The position numbers and the translations under genes are program-made. The notes below the pieces were generated by a model. It did no database searches and was not told the origin of the DNA. It worked only from the letters and a program-made list of their open reading frames with translations. This document shows positions 9,257 through 52,697 of a DNA stretch of 64,000 nucleotides, in pieces (the stretch's first letter is position 1; each line of letters opens with the position of its first letter). This DNA is from Naegleria gruberi (lineage: Eukaryota). Where the stretch lies: the NCBI GenBank assembly GCA_000004985.1, contig GG738877.1; one strand, written 5' to 3'.

Positions 9257-9618
9257 CACCATCAAACTAGTTTGATGCCATCATCGCATGCACCATGGAG
9301 CATAATTTCAATAGAGGTGCATAGAGTGGCACATTGTCAGTAAATGCATTTTGAAATTGATTTTTATTTACACTAGTTCCGATAGAGTTTGTCTTTTGAA
9401 TTCCTTCCTTCGGTAATAAGAAGATTATTGCTTTGGTTTACTTTCCTCTAAATCAATCTTGATCTTTTTCACTTCTTTACTTCTCGAATATTGAACAGAG
9501 AGTGCAAAACCAACAATAGCAACACCCCAAACACCAGCTTGATATTTCCAATTCATTCCTTGTATTTTTTTTGATTGAATTAATTCGTCATATTGAAAGC
9601 ACCTGTCCCTATTAGAAT

Positions 9619-12574
9619 TCAATCATAAAAGTCATTCAATTTCACCTTCTTACTTCCAAAGTTTGGTGGAATAGATTTGTTTGGAGGAGATGAAGAGCTT
9701 TGGAGGTCATCTAGTGAAAAATCAATAATGATATCATCATCTTCTAAATCGTTTGGAGTATTTGAGGAGGAGGCCCATTTTGGTGGTGGAACATCTGAAA
9801 ATATGAGAGACGGTAAGCTATCGATTCTTCTTGTGGAGCTTACTTCATTATTGGTTGACAATTTCAAAATCTTATCCAAATCCATATGCCCATTTGTTTT
9901 GAAAGCATCCTTGCTCTTTTCTTTCATTTCACTTCTGTATTTGGTGATATCAAAGTTATCTGTTTCAGTATACCTCTTAGTATTACTCATACCAGAGGAG
10001 GATGTAGTTTGATAATGATCTGGAGTATTATCAACAGCAGAATAATCAGCAATTGGCTCGTAAATATCCTCTCCTCCAAGAGGCACAAAATCGTCCTCTA
10101 CTATTTCAATTTCCTCTTCAATATTAACTATTTGCTGAGTTTCTTCCTCCTCTTGTTCATCCTTATCAGATAACACAACTTCCTCATCCTCATCGTCACT
10201 GTCTATTATTCTCCTCTTTTTAAGTTTTAATCCCTGAATCTTTGGTGATTGGACAATTATCTTTTCTCTGACAACTTGAGGAATAATTTGATTAGGAACC
10301 ATTCTCATATTTTTCTCAAAGAACTATCATGTTAACACGAGAATACTAGTAATTATTACAAACCTTCACGTCATTATGATATGGTATTTCCTTCAATGCA
10401 TCAATAAGAACTTTTTTCTGCTTAATGGATTCTTCATAAGCATGTCGTTCTCTACCCTCAGAAAGAAGAGCAACAATGTTACCTTTTCTCTTTCTACCAG
10501 TTCTACCAACTCTCTGAATGAGTCTTGTTGGACTTGAAGCAGAATCATCTATAAAATGTCAAACTCTATTTCAATAGAAAACTTACATAAAACAATCAAA
10601 TCAATTTCTCCAATATCTAAACCCTCTTCACCGATTGGTGTTGATACCAGTACGTTAAAAATACCATCTCTAAAATCGTGAATAATAGATTTTTGCTTCT
10701 TTTGGTTAAATCCTTTCTGGGCCCTTCCTTTGCCTTGTCCAATAAATGGAGAAACTTTCAGAATTTCATGTTTTGAAAGAATTTCCACAATAATATCGAC
10801 AGTTTTTCGGAAAAGTGCAAATACCACTACTTTAGTTTCTTGAGATGCTTTTTGGAAATGTTCCAATATGACTTGTTCCATTTTTTTGAGTTTAGGATGC
10901 ACATATCCCTGACTAATAATCTTCTCACATGCTTGAAGGATGGTTTTGAAAATTGGTTGTTTGATTATTTGATTTCTACTAAGAAGGTATTGTTTCTTCT
11001 TTTTGTCTGTTGTTTCAGTTGTTATATTTTGCAGCGAATCAACAAATAGGGTCATATCTTGGGTGTGTAAATAAAACAGACCTGTATACAGAGCTATCAA
11101 TACTCTATCATATTTAAGAAAAATATTCATGTTGATAACTTACTGAAAATCACCCATATATTTGTAAGCATCCTTTTTTTTACTCTTTAAAAATTCTGGA
11201 AATTCATTAGAGAAGGAAAAGAGTTGAATACTTACTTGTCATAGCTACGTGTAATGCATTCTTAGATAAAGAAGATGGGTCACAATTATAAACTGCACCA
11301 GCTTGAATCAATCTTTCCACAAATGGTCCCACTAATTTATAGAACAAATCTATAAAGATAATTTGAATCTAAATTATGAAATAATTCATTAAAACCTACT
11401 ATCTATTATCACAGAATCTCTATCACGATTACAAATTATCGTCTTAGTTTCTTTTTCATGTAAATATTCTGCTACATCCTTGTCTGATTCATCTCTAACC
11501 TCTACATGAGAAATTCTCAAATTTGTTATCACCTTTTGAATATCGGCATGAGTTTTTCCTGGAGTGGCTGACAATCCCAATACTCTCCAATGATCATTCT
11601 TCTTTCCAATTAATTTTGTAACCACACAATAAGCATGATTACCACTTGCCTTGTGAGCTTCATCAAAAACTACAAGAACTACTTGTCTTGCTGGACAAGA
11701 TCCTGTTTCTAAATCCTTCTCCACACACTCTGGAGTACAAAAGAATACTCGTTTAGTTTTCCACAAATCTACACGCTCGTCAGGAGAAATTCTACCAGTC
11801 AATACAACTGTTTCCTCTTCTGGAATACCCATAATATTGTAACAAGCATTCATTTGCTGATCTACTAGTGATATTGTCTGAAAATTATTGTAAAAAATCA
11901 ATGTAATCTGATTGAATACCTACATGAGCCAAGAAGATAATCTTACCAATTGGAAACCATCTATAATAATTGTACATTACAACACTGGCAATGAATGTTT
12001 TACCTAAAAGTGTCACACTAATGTTCCTAATTCAATACTTACCCAAACCTGTTGGTAAACATACGAGTGTATTAGTTAGAAGAACCTTCTCACAAATTTT
12101 GAACTGATACTTTCTCTCTGTATAGTTGGTTGGATAAATCCAAGTTTTTGCTGCTTCCAAATCAATTTGAGGAAAGCTTTTAGTATTATATTTCAATTCT
12201 TTTAGCTTTTCTTTCTTTTCATTCTCATGTTTTTCCAAAATCAATTCCAATTCATCATCATCAAGATTAATATCATCAATATTAATTCCTACAGTCGAAG
12301 TTGATTGTTTACTTGGAAAGTGATCGGAAATTGTTGTTTGTACATTGGTGATTCCTTTAGAGAGTACAGGTCTTAAATTCAGTGATCTATGATACAATCT
12401 CAAACCGATCGAGTCCTTCGATGATGAAGACTGATTATTTTGATTTCCACTGTTGTTACTATTTACATTATTACTGTCTCCAGAATTAATTGCATCCTGA
12501 TTATTTGAGGAAGCACTTGTCGTTTTCAATAATAACGATCGTTTGTTATTATTACTGTTCGACTTGGAAGACAT
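9619..12574 (-). CDS. FANCM/Mph1/Hef-like superfamily-2 DEAH helicase. Multi-exon gene with at least 6 exons. The N/S-rich N-terminus is followed by helicase motifs I-VI and an acidic C-terminal extension.
   Basis: Motif [10 protein letters not shown] is split by an intron at about 12036. Motif [14 protein letters not shown] and motif [11 protein letters not shown] sit in the exon at 11389-11901. The helicase-C region contains [22 protein letters not shown] and [18 protein letters not shown] in exons at 10380-11130. C-terminal exon is 9619-10308. Introns of 39-95 nt have GTAAGT/GTAGGT donors. Interior exon boundaries are approximate. Confidence 0.7.
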
Positions 12575-35876: not shown

Positions 35877-37298
35877 TTATTCTTGATTCAATAACTTTTC
35901 ATAATCTACACCCCTATCTCTATAAAATTCAAAAACAATTGGATTCATAAGACTGAAATACAATGGTGGAATGAAAGAGATTAAAATCATGGTTGAATAG
36001 CCGAATGGTAGTTTTGGAGATTTCTCATAAACTCTCAATTTGTAATATTCTCTGGTTGCATAGAAATGATGATCTGCATGGAAAACAATATTGAAATAGG
36101 CATAACTACTCATTCTAAACAAGGCATCAAAGCTATGAGTTTCATTCACTGGTTCATACTCACCATCATCCCTCAATTTTCTCTTCAATCCATAATGTTC
36201 AATATAATTCACACATTCAATAAGAATAATGGCAATCAATGCAGTAAGCAAGTAGGAACTCAAACCCAAAGTACCAAACTTGTAAAATACAAACGAGGCA
36301 AACAATACCAATGAAACAGTACTCCAGAACATTTCTGAGAAGAGTAAACTTGGAAGTGTTGTGTTAAATCTTCTTCTCCTTCTTTCTCTATGCTCAGTAT
36401 CAATGTGCCAAGCATTCATATATCCACCAATACAAGATCTCACAGCAAAATTGTAAAGATTTTCTCCAAATCTTGCAGTGGCAGCATCTTGAGGAGTTGC
36501 TGCTTTCTTATGATGAGAATAAACATGTTCCAGAGGGAAATGTAAATAACCATGGAAAATTAAAATAATCCTAGCACATAAATTCTCAATGAAGGTTCTC
36601 TTATGAAGTAAATCATGAGAAACTGCTCCTGATTGACCCAAAGCAACACCCAATGAAATTGAATGCATGAGAAATTGTTCAGCAGTCAACAAGTGAACTC
36701 TACTCAAAGAATAGAAAAACAAACAAGTTAATGAAATCGTATAAATGATTGGAACCATTCTATACAGGGTACTATAGTCTCTTGTTTGTGAGTCAATTTC
36801 CTTCTTATCATGTTCTTGATTCATATAGACGTACTCCTTTCCATTGTAAAAATAGTCAATCATTGGAATGATTACAAAACCAAATAATGGACCAGCCAGA
36901 AATGAAGTACAAATTACAGTTTCATCAGAAGGAAAATACTCTGAAATTATAACAGAAATGTTGTGATTATTAATAGTAGGAATCATTATAGTCTCTGGAA
37001 TTGTTGTAATTGTTTTATGAATGAAAGACAACGGCTGAGTAATGATATGTTTACGAAGAGGATGATCAACACTTTGAGATAAAGCCCACCACGAGAATGC
37101 ATGTAAACAAACAAGAATATGAATGTTAATCAAGTAGAGAATTGGGTTATTCCACAAGGGTGGATTTTGACTTGTAACATTTGAGTTGTTATTTACAATA
37201 TCACCACCACCAACTTGTGATAATTCATCATGATTATTTTGATGAATTTCATGAGTCAATGCACCATTCTCATTCTTCTGGGTTGTTGATATCAACAT
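35877..37298 (-). CDS. Integral-membrane di-iron alkane 1-monooxygenase (AlkB) family hydroxylase homologue. Intronless.
   Basis: All four AlkB histidine boxes are present in order: HDLLHKR, EHVYSHHKK, NYIEHYGL (identical to the AlkB motif C consensus) and HADHH. Several TM helices lie upstream of the boxes. The N-terminal 60 aa are N/Q-rich and eukaryote-like. Confidence 0.75.
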   Translation of the reverse strand: MLISTTQKNENGALTHEIHQNNHDELSQVGGGDIVNNNSNVTSQNPPLWNNPILYLINIHILVCLHAFSWWALSQSVDHPLRKHIITQPLSFIHKTITTIPETIMIPTINNHNISVIISEYFPSDETVICTSFLAGPLFGFVIIPMIDYFYNGKEYVYMNQEHDKKEIDSQTRDYSTLYRMVPIIYTISLTCLFFYSLSRVHLLTAEQFLMHSISLGVALGQSGAVSHDLLHKRTFIENLCARIILIFHGYLHFPLEHVYSHHKKAATPQDAATARFGENLYNFAVRSCIGGYMNAWHIDTEHRERRRRRFNTTLPSLLFSEMFWSTVSLVLFASFVFYKFGTLGLSSYLLTALIAIILIECVNYIEHYGLKRKLRDDGEYEPVNETHSFDALFRMSSYAYFNIVFHADHHFYATREYYKLRVYEKSPKLPFGYSTMILISFIPPLYFSLMNPIVFEFYRDRGVDYEKLLNQE

Positions 37299-38041
37299 AT
37301 TTACAAGATCCTCTTCTTATTCCTTACTTCCTCCAGAGTGGTGGTTTGAGTGTTTGAGTGCTTGTTGTATTTTGTAAAATAACCGAAAAAAATTGAGCTT
37401 GGCAGTGAGATTGAGTGTTGATTTGATTTTTTAGTTTGATTTATCTCTAGATGGATATTTGCCAAACTTTAATCTCGATTGAGATTGCATGGCGGAAGAG
37501 ATGTCCTCTCTCTAATTGGTTCGATAACCGAGTGAATGTTGAGCATAAATATAAATAGAGTGAATACTCGTCAATTGTGCATAATGATAATAATCGATGT
37601 TATCTTTAATTTGATTGGATTGAAATGTCTTCAACACGTTTTGCATTCGAAAGGAGTTTGATTCTTTTTTACAAATTGAAAGAGACTTTAAATCAAAATA
37701 GGAAATATTAAAAGAACATTGAACATTGGGGTGCTGTTTTTATTTTTAAAGAGAGAACATATTGAATAAGGCACATCATTGTCTGTAAGGCGTTTAACAT
37801 GATTTTGAAATTCACATTCCCTCGAAGAAGATGATGATTAGTATTTGGCTCCTCTTTAGTATTGGGTGTGAACATTTGTTATTGACCTTCGAAATTAATA
37901 AGGGTCCAAAAAATTGAGTTTCCTCCTTTTTTGTGAACAAATTATTAAAGATTGCAGAGTTAGTGCAATTTCAAAGTTCACAAATGGTGCTATTTTAAAA
38001 TTGCATTCAAACTGGAAATCAATAAAAAACAAAAGAAAAAA

Positions 38042-47386: not shown

Positions 47387-48019
47387 ATGGAACAAGATGA
47401 GGAGAAAACCATCCTAAAACTTGATCATCACATCGGATCTAGAGTTTTAACTAATTTTTATAGGACCACTGCCAAGTTTGCCAAGTTGGAAAGTAAACTA
47501 ATCAACTATTCGCAATATCTTTCACTATTCAAGGGTGAATTAAATATTCACTCAAGTACAAAATTATTATTCAGATCGAGTAGAGATGGATTTTCACTTT
47601 CTGATTTTCATTCTCGATGCGACAATCAACCAAAACTTGTAATTATTGTCAAGGCACAAAGGGGAGAGTTATTTGGAGGATACACAAGTCAGAATATCAA
47701 CGTAGCATTGAATTGTTCATCTGACTCTGTGAGGGATAATGATTCCTTTACTTTTCAATTTGGTGGCGAAAAATTGTACGTTTTCAGATTGTTGCCTTCG
47801 AGATTGGAACATGCATTGCATCGATATTCTTCAAGCTATCTTTTTGCTTTTTCTTTCTCTTTCTGGATTGGTGACAATGCCAACCATCAGACACTATCCA
47901 GTTCACATGGCCAAACAGAAGAAAATATTCTTCCTGAAGGTAGATTACCACCAGGGAAACAGTATTTTGGTGGAATGAATTTTCTTATTGAGGACATGGA
48001 GGTTTTCAAGATTGAGTAA
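47387..48019 (+). CDS. TLDc-domain protein (OXR1/NCOA7/TBC1D24-type TLD domain), 210 aa.
   Basis: Diagnostic TLDc blocks are present: LLFRSSRDGFSLSDFHSRCDNQPKLVIIVKAQRGELFGGYTS ... AFSFSF ... GG.NF.IEDMEVFKI. Intronless, ATG at 47387. Confidence 0.7.
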   Translation: MEQDEEKTILKLDHHIGSRVLTNFYRTTAKFAKLESKLINYSQYLSLFKGELNIHSSTKLLFRSSRDGFSLSDFHSRCDNQPKLVIIVKAQRGELFGGYTSQNINVALNCSSDSVRDNDSFTFQFGGEKLYVFRLLPSRLEHALHRYSSSYLFAFSFSFWIGDNANHQTLSSSHGQTEENILPEGRLPPGKQYFGGMNFLIEDMEVFKIE

Positions 48020-48771: not shown

Positions 48772-50278
48772 ATGCACCCACATCATCACCTGCCAGCACA
48801 TTCATCATCAACACACCAACAATTTAATGTTTCATTATCGAGTAGCCTTCGAAGATTATCCGAATCTACTTCATGTTTACTGTTAATTATCATTGCGAGT
48901 ATTGTGCTACTACAATCAATGAATGTTGTTTATGGAGCATTTCCTGCTAATAATATGGAAGTGATTGGAGGTGGAGGAACCTTTGCAGAAGAAGTTCAGT
49001 ACGTATCAGTTTCTTTCTTTTTCTAATATTCGAAACTTTATAGCAAAGGATGTGGTCAATCATTCTTTATTAAACATTTTTCAAATAACATTGAAATGAA
49101 TTACAATGCTACAGGTAAATATTGTCACATTTCAATTTCTAATACTTTCGAATAGGTAGTGGTACTGGTTTATTGAACTTGATCAATTATACATCAACAC
49201 CTTTCGATTATGCAGCTGGTGAATTAATTCCAACCGATGCTCAATATGCTGCTAATCCAGGTTTACAATTACTTCCATTTATTGGTGTAAACGTTTTAGT
49301 TGTTTTCAATTTACCTGGAATTTCTTCTTTAACCTTAAATAGACAAGTAATTGTTGACATTTTTGCTGCTCGTGTGACGTAGGTATTTTTTTACTGTTTT
49401 TGATTTAGTTTACAATTAAAGTAAATGGAATGATGCTTCAATTGCTGCATTAAATCCTTCAATTACTTTGCCAGATGCCAAAATTAAAAGAGTTGTGAGA
49501 TCTGACAGTTCAGGTACTACTGAACTTTTCACATCTGCATTGGCTGCATTTGCTTCAAGTACTGGAGTTTCATGGACACCTGGTGTGCAAAGTATTTTAA
49601 CATGGCCAAGTGAAGCATCAGATAATATCTCAAAACAAAAAGGTACATCTGGTATTTCAAATTACTTGTACCAAACTCCATATACTATTGCATATAATAC
49701 ACCTTCTGCTGTATTTTCATTCACATCAGCAACTATTATTAACAAGTATGGAACTCCAGTTGATGCTTCTGAAACAACTTGTAAGAATGCCATGACAGAT
49801 TTTCAAGATGCATTCGATTCTAAATTCTCTGCAACAATTGTAGATGCTCCAGGTCAAAATTCATATCCAATCTCTGGTTATTCATATCTTATTTATAAGA
49901 GTTCATCAATTGAAGAGTAAGTAGTTGTGAGATGATATTTCATTTATTAACATTTTTAATAGATGTAGCTTGGCTCAAGTCTTGTACAGATATTTCTCTT
50001 ATTTATATAGTGGAAATGTTGATACAATTATTACTGCTGCAAGCTTTGTTCCATTACCAAATAATGTTAAATCTAAAGCACAAGCAACTTTGGATAAATG
50101 GGTTTGTTCCTCGGGCGAAACTGCAGTGACATCTGAAATTGAGATTGTTGCAGTTGTCTTGTTATCTATTGCTGGTGGTTTTGTTTCGGTTGTTTCTCTA
50201 GGTATTGTTTTTGGTGTTTCAGTATATGCTCAATGGAAGAAGAGAAAGGATAGTGAAGAATCTACTGAAACTGACTAA
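48772..50278 (+). CDS. PstS/DING-family phosphate-binding protein (periplasmic-binding-protein type II fold), anchored at both ends by an N-terminal signal anchor and a C-terminal TM helix. Five exons, including a 71-nt micro-exon.
   Basis: Exon 1 is 48772-48998 and ends ...VIGGGGTFAEEV. A 45-nt intron at 48999-49043 has a GTACGT donor. Exon 2 is 49044-49114 (KGCGQSFFIKHFSNNIEMNYNAT). A 41-nt intron lies at 49115-49155. Exon 3 is 49156-49378 (GSGTGLL...VVFNLPG...IVDIFAARVT). A 43-nt intron lies at 49379-49421. Exon 4 is 49422-49916 (KWNDASIAALNP...VVRSDSSGTTELFTSAL...). A 45-nt intron lies at 49917-49961. Exon 5 is 49962-50278 (...LPNNVKSKAQATLDKW plus TM AVVLLSIAGGFVSVVSLGIVFGV). Every splice phase is consistent. 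The spliced protein is colinear with E. coli PstS through all conserved blocks (GSTF, NYQSIGSGAG, NLPG, DIYLGKI.KWND.AI..LNPG, RRADGSGT.F.FT.YL, LP..V...V...W). Confidence 0.8.
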
Positions 50279-50304
50279 GCCCATTTTATTGTACAATATA
50301 AATT

Positions 50305-52697
50305 TTATTGCATGAAATTATTAATTGACCTTAATCCATAGATTATCTCAACTTGCTTTCTTGCTTCGATTGCTAATAAACAAATGTGAATTTTTTCCCT
50401 CGTTCTTAATTTCACACCAGTATTTACAAATTGCTCCTTGGTACATCTTTCTGGATAGCAAACAACAGTCTTGATGTACTTTTTAAGATCAATATTAAGA
50501 AGCTTGTTGACCTTTTCATAATTGAAATCATCATGAGACACACCAAATAGTCTGTGAACATAACACCATATAGCAGCTCTGAATGAAGTCGTATCTACAT
50601 CCTTGATATCATAACATCTATTATCTGTCATGTTATAAATAAACTCAAACTCAGTATCTAATAAATCAGCAGCACCATAGTAAAATCTACTCAATAAAGA
50701 GAATGCATTTTCTTCCCAATTGAAATCATGAATAGAAGTAGTTTCATATTCCTTATTCTTTACATCAAAATCTTTGTAAGTAAAGTCATACTTGTTATGT
50801 TTGTACTTTTTAAGTTTAAGTGAGCGTTCTCTATTGTTAGAGTTTCGTTTGTAAACACCAGATGTGTTAGAGCTTATAAAGGTATGTCCTGCACTTGGTA
50901 TCAGACCCTCACTATCTGATTTCTTTGTGGCTCCTTTCATCATATCCTGTTTTTGAGCTTCCCAGAAAGTAACTGATGCAAAGTTTGGCGTTGAGAAGCA
51001 ATCAAAGTTGTTATAATTACTATATAAATGGTTTGGTACAATTTTAGATGAGTTGTCATTAGTTTCAGTACATTCAAAAGCTTTTTCTCTTTGATGTTTG
51101 TCTATTGGTGTATCGTCATCATCAGCAGTCCTTGTTAATGTTTCAACAAGCCTTTGAGTTTCATTCTTTTGTCTTTGTTTTGATTCCTCACTTTCAGTAA
51201 CAGAGCTGATAATATCTGCAATTGGTGTATCATCATCATCTGGTAAAATACCAATACCATAAATGAATCCCGACAGTGCATGGAAATGAGTCATTATTAT
51301 TACAGCATGAACTAGCTCGGCCATAGTCCATGCATTTTCTCCAACACCATTATTGCTTACTAATTCAGAGATGCTATCTTCATTAAGCATCCATGGCATG
51401 TGGCAAAGTAGTGAATTGAATTTCAATAACTTTTTCAGCTTTTGTGGAATAAACTCGATTCCTTTCAACCACTCCTCATTTCCACCATTTAGTAAAAATT
51501 CTACTTCAAGTCTTCTCACTAAATATTTACAACTATGTCTTGATGCAGCCAAAATAGCAATGTAAGATCTCCAATCTAATGGCAGAGGACCGTTTGATTT
51601 CATCAAAAAATTATATGACTTGTAGTAAATCTCTGCAAAATGGGCGTGTGTGAAAAGAGCTTGAGAAAGATGAGGAATCACACCATTATCAATGAAAATA
51701 GTTTTGAAATGTTCTTGAATGATATGTAAATCATTGAATTGATCACTACCTGATGCCATTTTGTAAATTGGTTTGAAAGAAAGTGGTGAAAAGAATTGAG
51801 AAATTGCTCTCAAATGTCCCGAATTGCAATCTACTTTTTGAATACATTTTACACCATAATTCTTATCTAAATCCTCAATTAATTTTAAAAAGGTTGTTGA
51901 AATATCCTCAAAAGGACTCTCATAAGCAAATCTAGATATAAGAGGAGAATATCTTTGGAAGAAGAGACTTGGCTTCAATGAATCTTCATCATCTCCTGTA
52001 TCCGCTGCATAATTTCGTTCCTTCCAAAGTTTAGCATGGTTTAATATTATTTGTATAACATTATTAATTCCAATCCTTCGTTTCTCAGCTGATTATAAAT
52101 TCATCATTAAATTATTAGCAAATCAAAGAACAAACATACCAATTGGATGTAATATTTGTCTAAAAAAGTGATTTTCTGATAATAAAACACCTTCATCATA
52201 CTCATCAGAGTAAATTTCGTAAATATCAAAGGGATGGTGTGAATCGTGGGTGTGATTAGGTGTTTTAATAGAATGTTGTTGATGTTTAGAATTGTGAACA
52301 GTATTAGTTTGATGTTGATGTTCTTCATCACGTAAACCATTAGGAGAAAAGACAGAATCATCCTCGTGTTGATCGTTAGAGTTACTCAGCCACTGTGGTT
52401 CTTCATCATCATCATGTTTTTGAAACAATTGTTGAGAATTATCCATTAAATGATGACTTTCAGAAGGAGATGTCATTGGTATGGAAGAAGAGAGCCAATC
52501 TGGAGTGCCACCACTGTGATGACTTCCCTGTGTTGGGGATTGTATAAATGATGATGAAGAAATATCAACAGCCAACGATGATAGTGAGAATGGATTGTTG
52601 GGTGATGTGTTGATATTAAGTCGTGAGTTATTATTATTATTCGCTTGATGATTTGATGATGAAGGAAAACCAAACATTTTGTTGTTGATCCGAAAAG
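50305..52697 (-). CDS. Sestrin (PA26 family) homologue with an N/H/Q/S-rich low-complexity N-terminal exon. Two exons.
   Basis: Exon 1 is 52697-52140 (first ATG at 52697; track start is TTG). A 51-nt intron at 52139-52089 has a GTATGT donor. Exon 2 is 52088-50305. Sestrin signatures: LSQALFTHAHF, WRSYIAILAASRHSCKYLV, ELVHAVIIMTHFHALSGFIYGIG, and C-terminal LLDTEFEFIYNMTDN...DVDTTSFRAAIWCYVHRLFGV...CYPE. Confidence 0.75.

Follow-up and report, generated by a model that had tools for sequence, protein, structure and literature searches.

A stretch of 64,000 nucleotides from contig GG738877.1 of the Naegleria gruberi genome (assembly GCA_000004985.1), called here the window, has been analysed, and at positions 48772-50278 of its plus strand it contains a PstS-like gene composed of five exons and four GT-AG introns. 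The spliced coding sequence of 1332 nucleotides (nt) is in frame and its 443 codons specify a protein of 443 amino acids (aa) with the layout signal sequence, PstS domain and transmembrane segment. About 335 aa of this protein make up a classical Venus-flytrap domain of the PstS type (type II periplasmic-binding protein), and the protein is a member of a widespread eukaryotic family of membrane-tethered PstS ectodomains that has not been formally described.

The PstS-type domain and its ligand site

A preliminary description of the locus, made from the DNA letters alone, had attributed the gene to the PstS/type II binding-protein family, and profile searches did not place the protein outside this family. 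Pfam PBP_like_2 (PF12849) was matched with E = 1.1e-17 and 65.1 bits (gathering cut-off 27), and the NCBIfam PstS profile TIGR00975 was matched with E = 1.5e-50, with residues 66-381 aligned on positions 3-310 of the 315 of the profile, so that the colinearity with PstS proposed before is borne out. Solved PstS structures (Protein Data Bank, PDB, chains) matched residues 59-380 with E values down to 3e-26. Such a homology match over all exon junctions is well above chance and supports the spliced model. A structure predicted for the N. fowleri orthologue (predicted local distance difference test, pLDDT, 87.6; predicted template-modelling score, pTM, 0.80) was superimposed on phosphate-bound PstS from E. 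coli, Burkholderia and Yersinia with TM-scores of 0.89-0.90 and a root-mean-square deviation (rmsd) of 2.7 A.

Eight of the nine E. coli ligand positions compared (T10, F11, S38, D56, R135, S139, G140 and T141, plus D137) are identical in the N. gruberi protein, with D56 replaced by glutamate. T69/F70 (codons 48976-48981) correspond to T10/F11, Ser101 (codon 49158-49160) to S38, and the block R200-S-D202-S-S204-G205-T206 (49498-49518) to R135, D137, S139, G140 and T141, while Glu122 (codon 49221-49223) is found at the position of Asp56. The earlier statement that all phosphate-binding blocks are conserved is therefore right for the other ligand positions and wrong for the key Asp56. Glutamate is present at this position in all three Naegleria species and aspartate in Willaertia, and glutamate was also found there in 18 of the 129 PstS domains compared among the exhaustive-search matches described below. 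According to established PstS biochemistry, a carboxylate at this position selects protonated phosphate over sulfate, and glutamate keeps it.

The affiliation to the DING proteins, which had been put forward together with that to PstS, was rejected. DING proteins are members of the PstS superfamily and share with the N. gruberi protein the principle of a phosphate-binding Venus-flytrap, and the IGGGGT motif in the predicted mature N-terminus (AFPANNMEVIGGGGTF) superficially resembles DINGGG. However, there is no DINGGG in this N-terminus, and the DING structures (PfluDING, HPBP) matched only a 110-residue stretch, residues 110-219, with E about 1e-10, against full-length matches with E about 3e-26 for PstS. 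The N. fowleri model was superimposed on DING/HPBP with TM-scores of 0.64-0.71 and rmsd above 5 A, so that structure prediction gave the PstS Venus-flytrap and not the DING fold. DING proteins constitute a distant sub-family, soluble, with the DINGGG N-terminus and extra loops, whereas the N. gruberi protein is membrane-anchored and, among bacteria, is most closely related to Anaerolineae PstS and not to Pseudomonas DING. The chance that this is the long-sought gene of a eukaryotic DING protein is minimal, and this reading is effectively excluded. Since the protein is of the classical PstS type, the gene is silent on the problem of the missing DING genes, and the locus is taken out of the DING debate.

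Structure and conservation of the gene

The exons, the introns and the main protein features, all on the plus strand, are the following:

48772-48998 (+), exon 1, 227 nt: start codon, n-region, signal sequence and first phosphate-ligand block GGGGTF
48874-48939 (+), hydrophobic N-terminal segment and likely cleavage region: aa 35-53, Kyte-Doolittle 19-residue mean 2.48; VYG/AF at aa 54-56
48999-49043 (+), intron 1, 45 nt: GTACGT..ATAG, phase 2; site and phase shared with N. fowleri and N. lovaniensis
49044-49114 (+), exon 2, 71 nt: encodes HKGCGQSFFIKHFSNNIEMNYNAT(G), colinear with the orthologues
49115-49155 (+), intron 2, 41 nt: phase 1, within the Gly codon preceding ligand Ser101
49156-49378 (+), exon 3, 223 nt: GSGTG block with Ser101, plus Glu122
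49379-49421 (+), intron 3, 43 nt: GTAGGT..AAAG, phase 2; site and phase shared with N. fowleri and N. lovaniensis
49422-49916 (+), exon 4, 495 nt: KWNDASIAALNP, ligand block R200-T206 and sequon N242-I-S; three synonymous single-nucleotide polymorphisms (SNPs)
49917-49962 (+), intron 4, 46 nt: GTAAGT..ATAG, phase 2; site and phase shared with N. fowleri, N. lovaniensis and Willaertia magna
49963-50278 (+), exon 5, 316 nt: end of the PstS domain (Cys340, Cys387), stalk, transmembrane helix, tail and TAA stop; four synonymous SNPs
50144-50224 (+), C-terminal transmembrane helix: about aa 400-426, Kyte-Doolittle 19-residue mean 2.57; kept in all four orthologues
50225-50278 (+), cytoplasmic tail and stop codon: YAQWKKRKDSEESTETD, 17 aa, a basic cluster followed by an acidic Ser/Thr-rich end

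The five-exon structure coincides exactly in its coordinates with that proposed in the preliminary description. The four introns (45, 41, 43 and 46 nt) all start with GTA, end with AG and contain 21-27 % GC. The 71-nt exon 2, created by intron 2 and presented before as a micro-exon, exists, but by the usual definition it counts as a small exon and not as a micro-exon. When the spliced protein was compared with the annotated orthologues, themselves spliced, colinearity extended over each exon junction; the identity was 55 % to N. fowleri, 56 % to N. lovaniensis and 46 % to Willaertia magna. The exon structures of these orthologues were mapped on their genomic loci in order to compare the introns. 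None of the three orthologues has an intron at the site of intron 2, whose position and phase are those of intron 1 (phase 1; locus L085, 3188-3232) of a Willaertia paralogue in which the PstS domain and the transmembrane segment are followed by a cyclase; either intron 2 is an old intron lost from the orthologues or it was gained in parallel at an AG/GT site. No intron position was common to the N. gruberi gene and the members of the family from the fungus Calcarisporiella or the mollusc Nucella. The N. fowleri model contains an extra phase-1 intron of 204 nt (locus L001, 8946-9149; WYLGTV/PLPSAW) that is present neither in N. lovaniensis nor in N. gruberi, and that may be either lineage-specific or an annotation artefact cutting out a variable loop.

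A metagenome contig of 1346 bp (ENA ERZ929261, PRJEB11402) is 99.3 % identical to positions 49106-50451 of the window, introns included, which indicates that the sample contained an organism very closely related to the sequenced N. gruberi strain. Nine differences were found, two in intron 2 and seven in exons 4 and 5, and the seven exonic differences are all synonymous in the spliced frame, which fits purifying selection on exactly this frame. In the contig the gene has been split by prokaryote-style calling into exon-sized open reading frames (ORFs), such as P0132. In codon usage the gene closely follows its neighbours (r = 0.95), and its GC content at third codon positions (GC3) is 0.18, against 0.86 in the nearest bacterial gene, so that codon usage and introns match the host as had been stated. 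Judged from the sequences, the gene model is confirmed as that of a real, spliced and host-adapted nuclear gene of N. gruberi, and comparison of the four loci shows a gene conserved, with common introns, across Naegleria and Willaertia and evidently under purifying selection.

Topology of the predicted protein

The C-terminal transmembrane helix described before is real and it coincides with a helix (388-427) in the model of the N. fowleri orthologue. The N-terminal segment had been regarded as a signal anchor, an assignment not upheld by the orthologues. Their hydrophobic segments begin within the first ten residues and are followed by small residues (VTA/A, VTA/S, VNG/Q), as in a typical cleaved signal peptide, which makes a type I topology more likely. 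N. gruberi adds a 34-aa His/Ser-rich n-region before the hydrophobic segment, and its putative cleavage site VYG/A resembles those of the orthologues, so this segment is probably a cleavable signal peptide rather than an anchor. The sequon for N-glycosylation N242-I-S is kept in all four species, and Cys340 and Cys387 form a pair common with Anaerolineae PstS. The orthologue tails also consist of a basic cluster (KKRK) followed by an acidic end. Altogether, the product would be a type I single-pass membrane glycoprotein with its flytrap exposed outside the cell or in the endocytic lumen.

The annotated N. lovaniensis orthologue (393 aa; locus L002, about 9585-9720, PYSW02000041.1) stops early at '...ILLAILVD', and the remainder of the transmembrane helix, the KKRK cluster and the acidic tail continue in another frame; this suggests a 1-nt frameshift of assembly or annotation and not a real truncation.

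A eukaryotic family of membrane-tethered PstS ectodomains

Beyond the three orthologues, a word-indexed search returned only bacterial PstS proteins, the best of them 32-36 % identical and from Anaerolineales/Chloroflexota. An exhaustive HMMER search was carried out with a profile of the three orthologues, and the best 150 cluster representatives were considered. Most of them are long and contain between one and five stretches that match PstS (up to four when counted with the domain hidden Markov model), with a transmembrane segment after these stretches. They include the N. gruberi paralogues EFC40147 and EFC48490 and proteins of Willaertia magna, the jakobid Andalucia godoyi and Palpitomonas, of the ichthyosporean Chromosphaera, the nucleariid Parvularia and the fungus Calcarisporiella, and of animals such as the molluscs Haliotis and Nucella and the nemertean Tubulanus. 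The gene of Nucella extends over 29 kb and contains seven introns, which indicates that these are genuine animal genes. The word-indexed search missed all the eukaryotic relatives, several of which would outscore most of the bacterial matches that it listed, as well as the 99 %-identical fragment P0132, and the closest relatives judged from that search alone would have been wrong.

Three architectures were reported by Pfam: PBP_like_2 with Guanylate_cyc in Willaertia; PBP_like_2 with Pkinase and Guanylate_cyc in Haliotis, Tubulanus and others, automatically named 'ANP receptor-like'; and PBP_like_2 with 7tm_3 in Calcarisporiella and others. The same cyclase module follows the transmembrane segment in Andalucia (seed-based search), and the N. 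gruberi paralogue EFC48490, judged by eye, has a PstS-transmembrane-cyclase layout. These receptors fall in the same neighbour-joining (NJ) ectodomain clade as the N. gruberi protein, with the domain-then-transmembrane layout and largely the same ligands; the N. gruberi protein differs in that it ends 17 residues after the transmembrane helix, without an intracellular signalling module (cyclase, kinase or seven-transmembrane, 7TM), a part that many members of the family possess, though not every one.

Some members of the family deserve separate mention. The Haliotis proteins P0142 and P0147 and the Tubulanus protein P0159, automatically named 'atrial natriuretic peptide receptor-like' or 'retinal guanylyl cyclase-like', have a PstS-type (PBP_like_2) ectodomain, and no ANF_receptor domain was reported by Pfam in the receptor guanylyl cyclases of these two animals. 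The phosphate ligand set of P0142 is intact (S F S D R D S G T), and the Haliotis and Tubulanus receptors are candidate phosphate-regulated guanylyl cyclases. In P0121 of Chromosphaera perkinsii (2386 aa), PstS domains repeated in tandem four to five times precede Cys-rich repeats of EGF/ephrin-receptor-like type, after which comes a membrane region with several passes. In P0164 (EFC40147), P0174, P0185 and P0229, the nearest relatives of paralogue type, the C-terminus is hydrophobic without a cytoplasmic tail and resembles a glycosylphosphatidylinositol (GPI)-anchor signal. EFC40147 belongs to the same sub-clade as the N. gruberi protein studied here but is only 29 % identical to it, and this sub-clade holds differently anchored and possibly non-binding members.

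Phylogeny and origin

A NJ tree of 243 domains, with about 300 columns and rooted on E. coli, was constructed. The Naegleria and Willaertia orthologues (Heterolobosea) formed a clade in 99 % of the replicates, and in 100/100 replicates their sister group was composed entirely of exhaustive-search sequences and was free of the bacterial PstS proteins from the word-indexed search. The bacteria-free clade around Heterolobosea had a median of 96 sequences, and its members belong to Discoba, Holozoa, fungi, molluscs, a nemertean, Palpitomonas and further groups. A transmembrane segment after the domain was found in 74 of 87 clade proteins (85 %), compared with 11 % outside the clade. The first bacteria reached were Anaerolineae in about 61 % of the replicates, which gives moderate support to Anaerolineae as the nearest bacteria. 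A first tree, built with the word-indexed matches only, had placed Heterolobosea as sister to Anaerolineae PstS (82 %), and the lineage-specific transfer that it suggested was dropped after the exhaustive search. The phylogeny thus places the gene in a eukaryote-type clade and speaks against a recent bacterial transfer specific to Naegleria, although the distance method and the parity of Anaerolineae proteins in pairwise BLAST make the topology indicative and not proven.

The origin of the gene could be a single old eukaryotic acquisition of an Anaerolineae-like bacterial pstS, to which a signal peptide, a transmembrane anchor and introns would have been added afterwards, together with domain shuffling. 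The gene is a well-supported case of a bacterial binding protein domesticated by a protist, and the domestication of bacterial genes through added signal peptides and introns is already documented for Heterolobosea (PMC11589745). That the locus represents instead a recent bacterial transfer, contamination of the assembly or a pseudogene might be supposed from the word-indexed search, which gave bacteria only beyond the three orthologues, and from the pairwise scores, in which the top bacterial matches (Anaerolineales, 35 % identity) are on a par with the eukaryotic paralogues. Against this, the gene has four spliceosomal introns with positions common across genera, host codon usage, an intact ORF with synonymous-only polymorphism and a place nested in the eukaryote-type clade, and it is flanked by eukaryotic genes (TLDc, sestrin, DNA polymerase delta). 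This alternative is given almost no weight, and contamination and pseudogene in particular are effectively excluded.

With respect to the Anaerolineae/Chloroflexota lipoprotein forms of PstS, the N. gruberi protein has in common the fold and the full-length colinearity, at about 35 % identity. The anchor is a C-terminal transmembrane helix in the latter and an N-terminal lipid in the former, and further differences from bacterial PstS are Glu for Asp56, spliceosomal introns, N-glycosylation sequons, eukaryotic codon usage and a score below the equivalog level. The nearest bacterial homologue is encoded in a pstS-pstC-pstA...phoU operon, unlike the N. gruberi gene, which has no pstCAB partner in the window. 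No pstC/A homologue was found in the 64 kb of the window and no pstC/A/B genes at the orthologue loci of N. fowleri, N. lovaniensis and Willaertia.

Possible function and alternative explanations

A cell-surface phosphate sensor or scavenger, as suggested in the preliminary description, remains the most reasonable reading of the predicted anatomy, and it is strengthened by the receptor-fused relatives. Our best explanation as a whole, held tentatively and at slightly below an even chance, is that the protein is a tethered PstS flytrap read by a membrane partner, as a phosphate sensor or co-receptor. The flytrap would be exposed on the extracellular side or within an endocytic compartment and would close on inorganic phosphate by means of Thr69, Phe70 (NH), Ser101, Arg200/Asp202, Ser204, Gly205 and Thr206, with Glu122 in place of Asp56. 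Having neither its own signalling domain nor an ATP-binding cassette (ABC) permease on which to dock, the protein would act through a partner in the same membrane, which would read the phosphate-loaded ectodomain; the likeliest partner would be a paralogous PstS-receptor cyclase, or another receptor. The N. gruberi protein would then be a tethered phosphate sensor or co-receptor. The sensor or co-receptor role is cautiously favoured, at a little under even, because the recurrent fusions of the family are to signalling modules and because a precedent is available in bacteria, where phosphate-loaded PstS activates the CtpL chemoreceptor of P. aeruginosa (PMC8050422). CtpL and the fusions of Ser/Thr kinase with PstS, such as P0067, illustrate PstS as a sensor module and not only as a part of a transport system; these bacterial proteins are soluble or fused to a bacterial kinase, and no homology of the partners is implied.

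A scavenger without any signalling comes as a close second, though it is in itself rather unlikely. Phosphate would be captured at the surface or in the lumen of phagosomes or endosomes and handed over to a secondary transporter (PHO84/PiT/Pho89-type), or delivered by endocytic cycling. This proposal uses an anatomy identical to that of the sensor and agrees with the ancestral role of PstS, high-affinity capture for uptake; algal PstS homologues are induced together with phosphate-uptake genes, the very low GC3 (0.18) could fit a well-expressed gene, and the basic-then-acidic, Ser/Thr-rich tail resembles acidic-cluster trafficking signals. It is weakened by the relatives, most of which bear signalling modules and not transporter modules, by the little flux that a 1:1 membrane-tethered binder yields unless it is recycled, and by the fact that we know of no eukaryotic transporter that takes its ligand from a binding protein. 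It is less probable still that the site has drifted, so that it binds another ligand (arsenate, phosphite, a phosphoester or another anion) or none, the protein having an adhesive, decoy or structural role at the surface. The proteins of the four species, although only 46-57 % identical overall, agree in seven of eight ligand positions and in the Arg-Asp salt bridge, Willaertia retains Asp at the Asp56 position, and the glutamate of the others preserves the selecting carboxylate; these are arguments for a site that still binds phosphate.

Several observations weigh against phosphate sensing by this protein, and the first of them are also those that a drifted site would explain. Asp56 was invariant in the 109/109 bacterial PstS sequences compared, and its replacement by Glu in N. 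gruberi could alter the pocket geometry and the ligand. The TIGR00975 score of 172.1 bits is lower than the equivalog cut-off of 205, and the protein does not reach the curated level of the transporter subunit PstS, whereas an Anaerolineales homologue scores 291 bits. The closest metagenomic relatives, P0174 and P0229, have lost several of the phosphate ligands, so phosphate binding is not universal in the clade. The predicted structure is that of the N. fowleri orthologue, 55 % identical, and not of the N. gruberi protein. The 17-aa tail could equally serve trafficking, and the candidate partners are hypothetical. Concerning the family background, Anaerolineae proteins are as similar to the N. 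gruberi protein in pairwise BLAST as the eukaryotic paralogues are, and with distance-only NJ on about 300 columns a long-branch attraction among fast-evolving eukaryotic sequences is possible.

A broader and more speculative proposal, to which we attach a low probability, is that the tethered Naegleria PstS and its cyclase-, kinase-cyclase- and 7TM-fused relatives constitute one pan-eukaryotic system of ancient origin by which extracellular phosphate is sensed and which goes back to a single Chloroflexi-like pstS, with the N. gruberi protein as a phosphate-loaded co-receptor or modulator of the paralogous PstS-receptor cyclases. If this were true, external phosphate would be coupled to cAMP/cGMP, and so to feeding, chemotaxis or the switch from amoeba to flagellate.

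To our knowledge, the perception of extracellular phosphate by eukaryotes is still poorly understood. The PstS flytrap, often with intact ligands, fronts three kinds of signalling modules, namely cyclases (Naegleria, Willaertia, Andalucia), a kinase plus guanylyl cyclase (abalone, nemertean) and class-C 7TM (fungi), and these PstS-flytrap receptors are concrete, clonable candidates for extracellular phosphate receptors. No paper was found on this orthogroup or on PstS-cyclase or PstS-kinase-cyclase receptors, and the Naegleria orthologues have been entered as 'PBP domain-containing protein'.

The rarity formerly ascribed to a spliced nuclear copy in a eukaryote is contradicted by the existing records, and the N. 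gruberi gene is not unique. Its paralogue EFC40147 was already annotated as 'periplasmic phosphate binding protein-like protein', and the nuclear Chlamydomonas homologue PSTS (Cre01.g044300), likewise annotated before, is induced by the phosphate-starvation regulator PSR1 (PMC10413257). Transcripts of pstS serve as phosphorus-stress markers in diatoms, and fusions of PBP_like_2 with 7tm_3 have been listed in Spizellomyces punctatus (SPPG_06488; PMC3251606) and in Plasmodiophora brassicae (PMC4815078).

Genomic context

The window is AT-rich, with about 33 % GC throughout, and the neighbours of the PstS-like gene are ordinary eukaryotic genes encoding DNA polymerase delta, a TLDc protein, sestrin/PA26, a FAD-linked oxidase and an RRM protein. 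The ORF at 47387-48019 is identical to the N. gruberi protein EFC42816.1 / NAEGRDRAFT_69302, and no N. gruberi protein for the PstS-like locus itself was among the matches of the word-indexed search. Neither a second copy of the gene nor any tRNA was found in the window.

A distance of 26 bp separates the end of the convergent sestrin gene (50305-51978, minus strand; PA26, E = 1.5e-125) from the PstS-like stop codon, and the 3' untranslated regions of both genes must therefore overlap. Sestrins are nutrient-signalling proteins, but the adjacency is probably a coincidence and it is not conserved in the other species. When the window was compared with the loci of N. fowleri, N. lovaniensis and Willaertia, the PstS-like gene alone was held in common, plus a desaturase near the Willaertia gene. 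A fatty-acid desaturase ORF (35880-37316, minus strand) is located about 11.5 kb upstream of the N. gruberi gene and a 35 %-identical homologue (locus L003, 2733-4037) about 4 kb upstream of the Willaertia orthologue, which reflects either residual microsynteny or chance.

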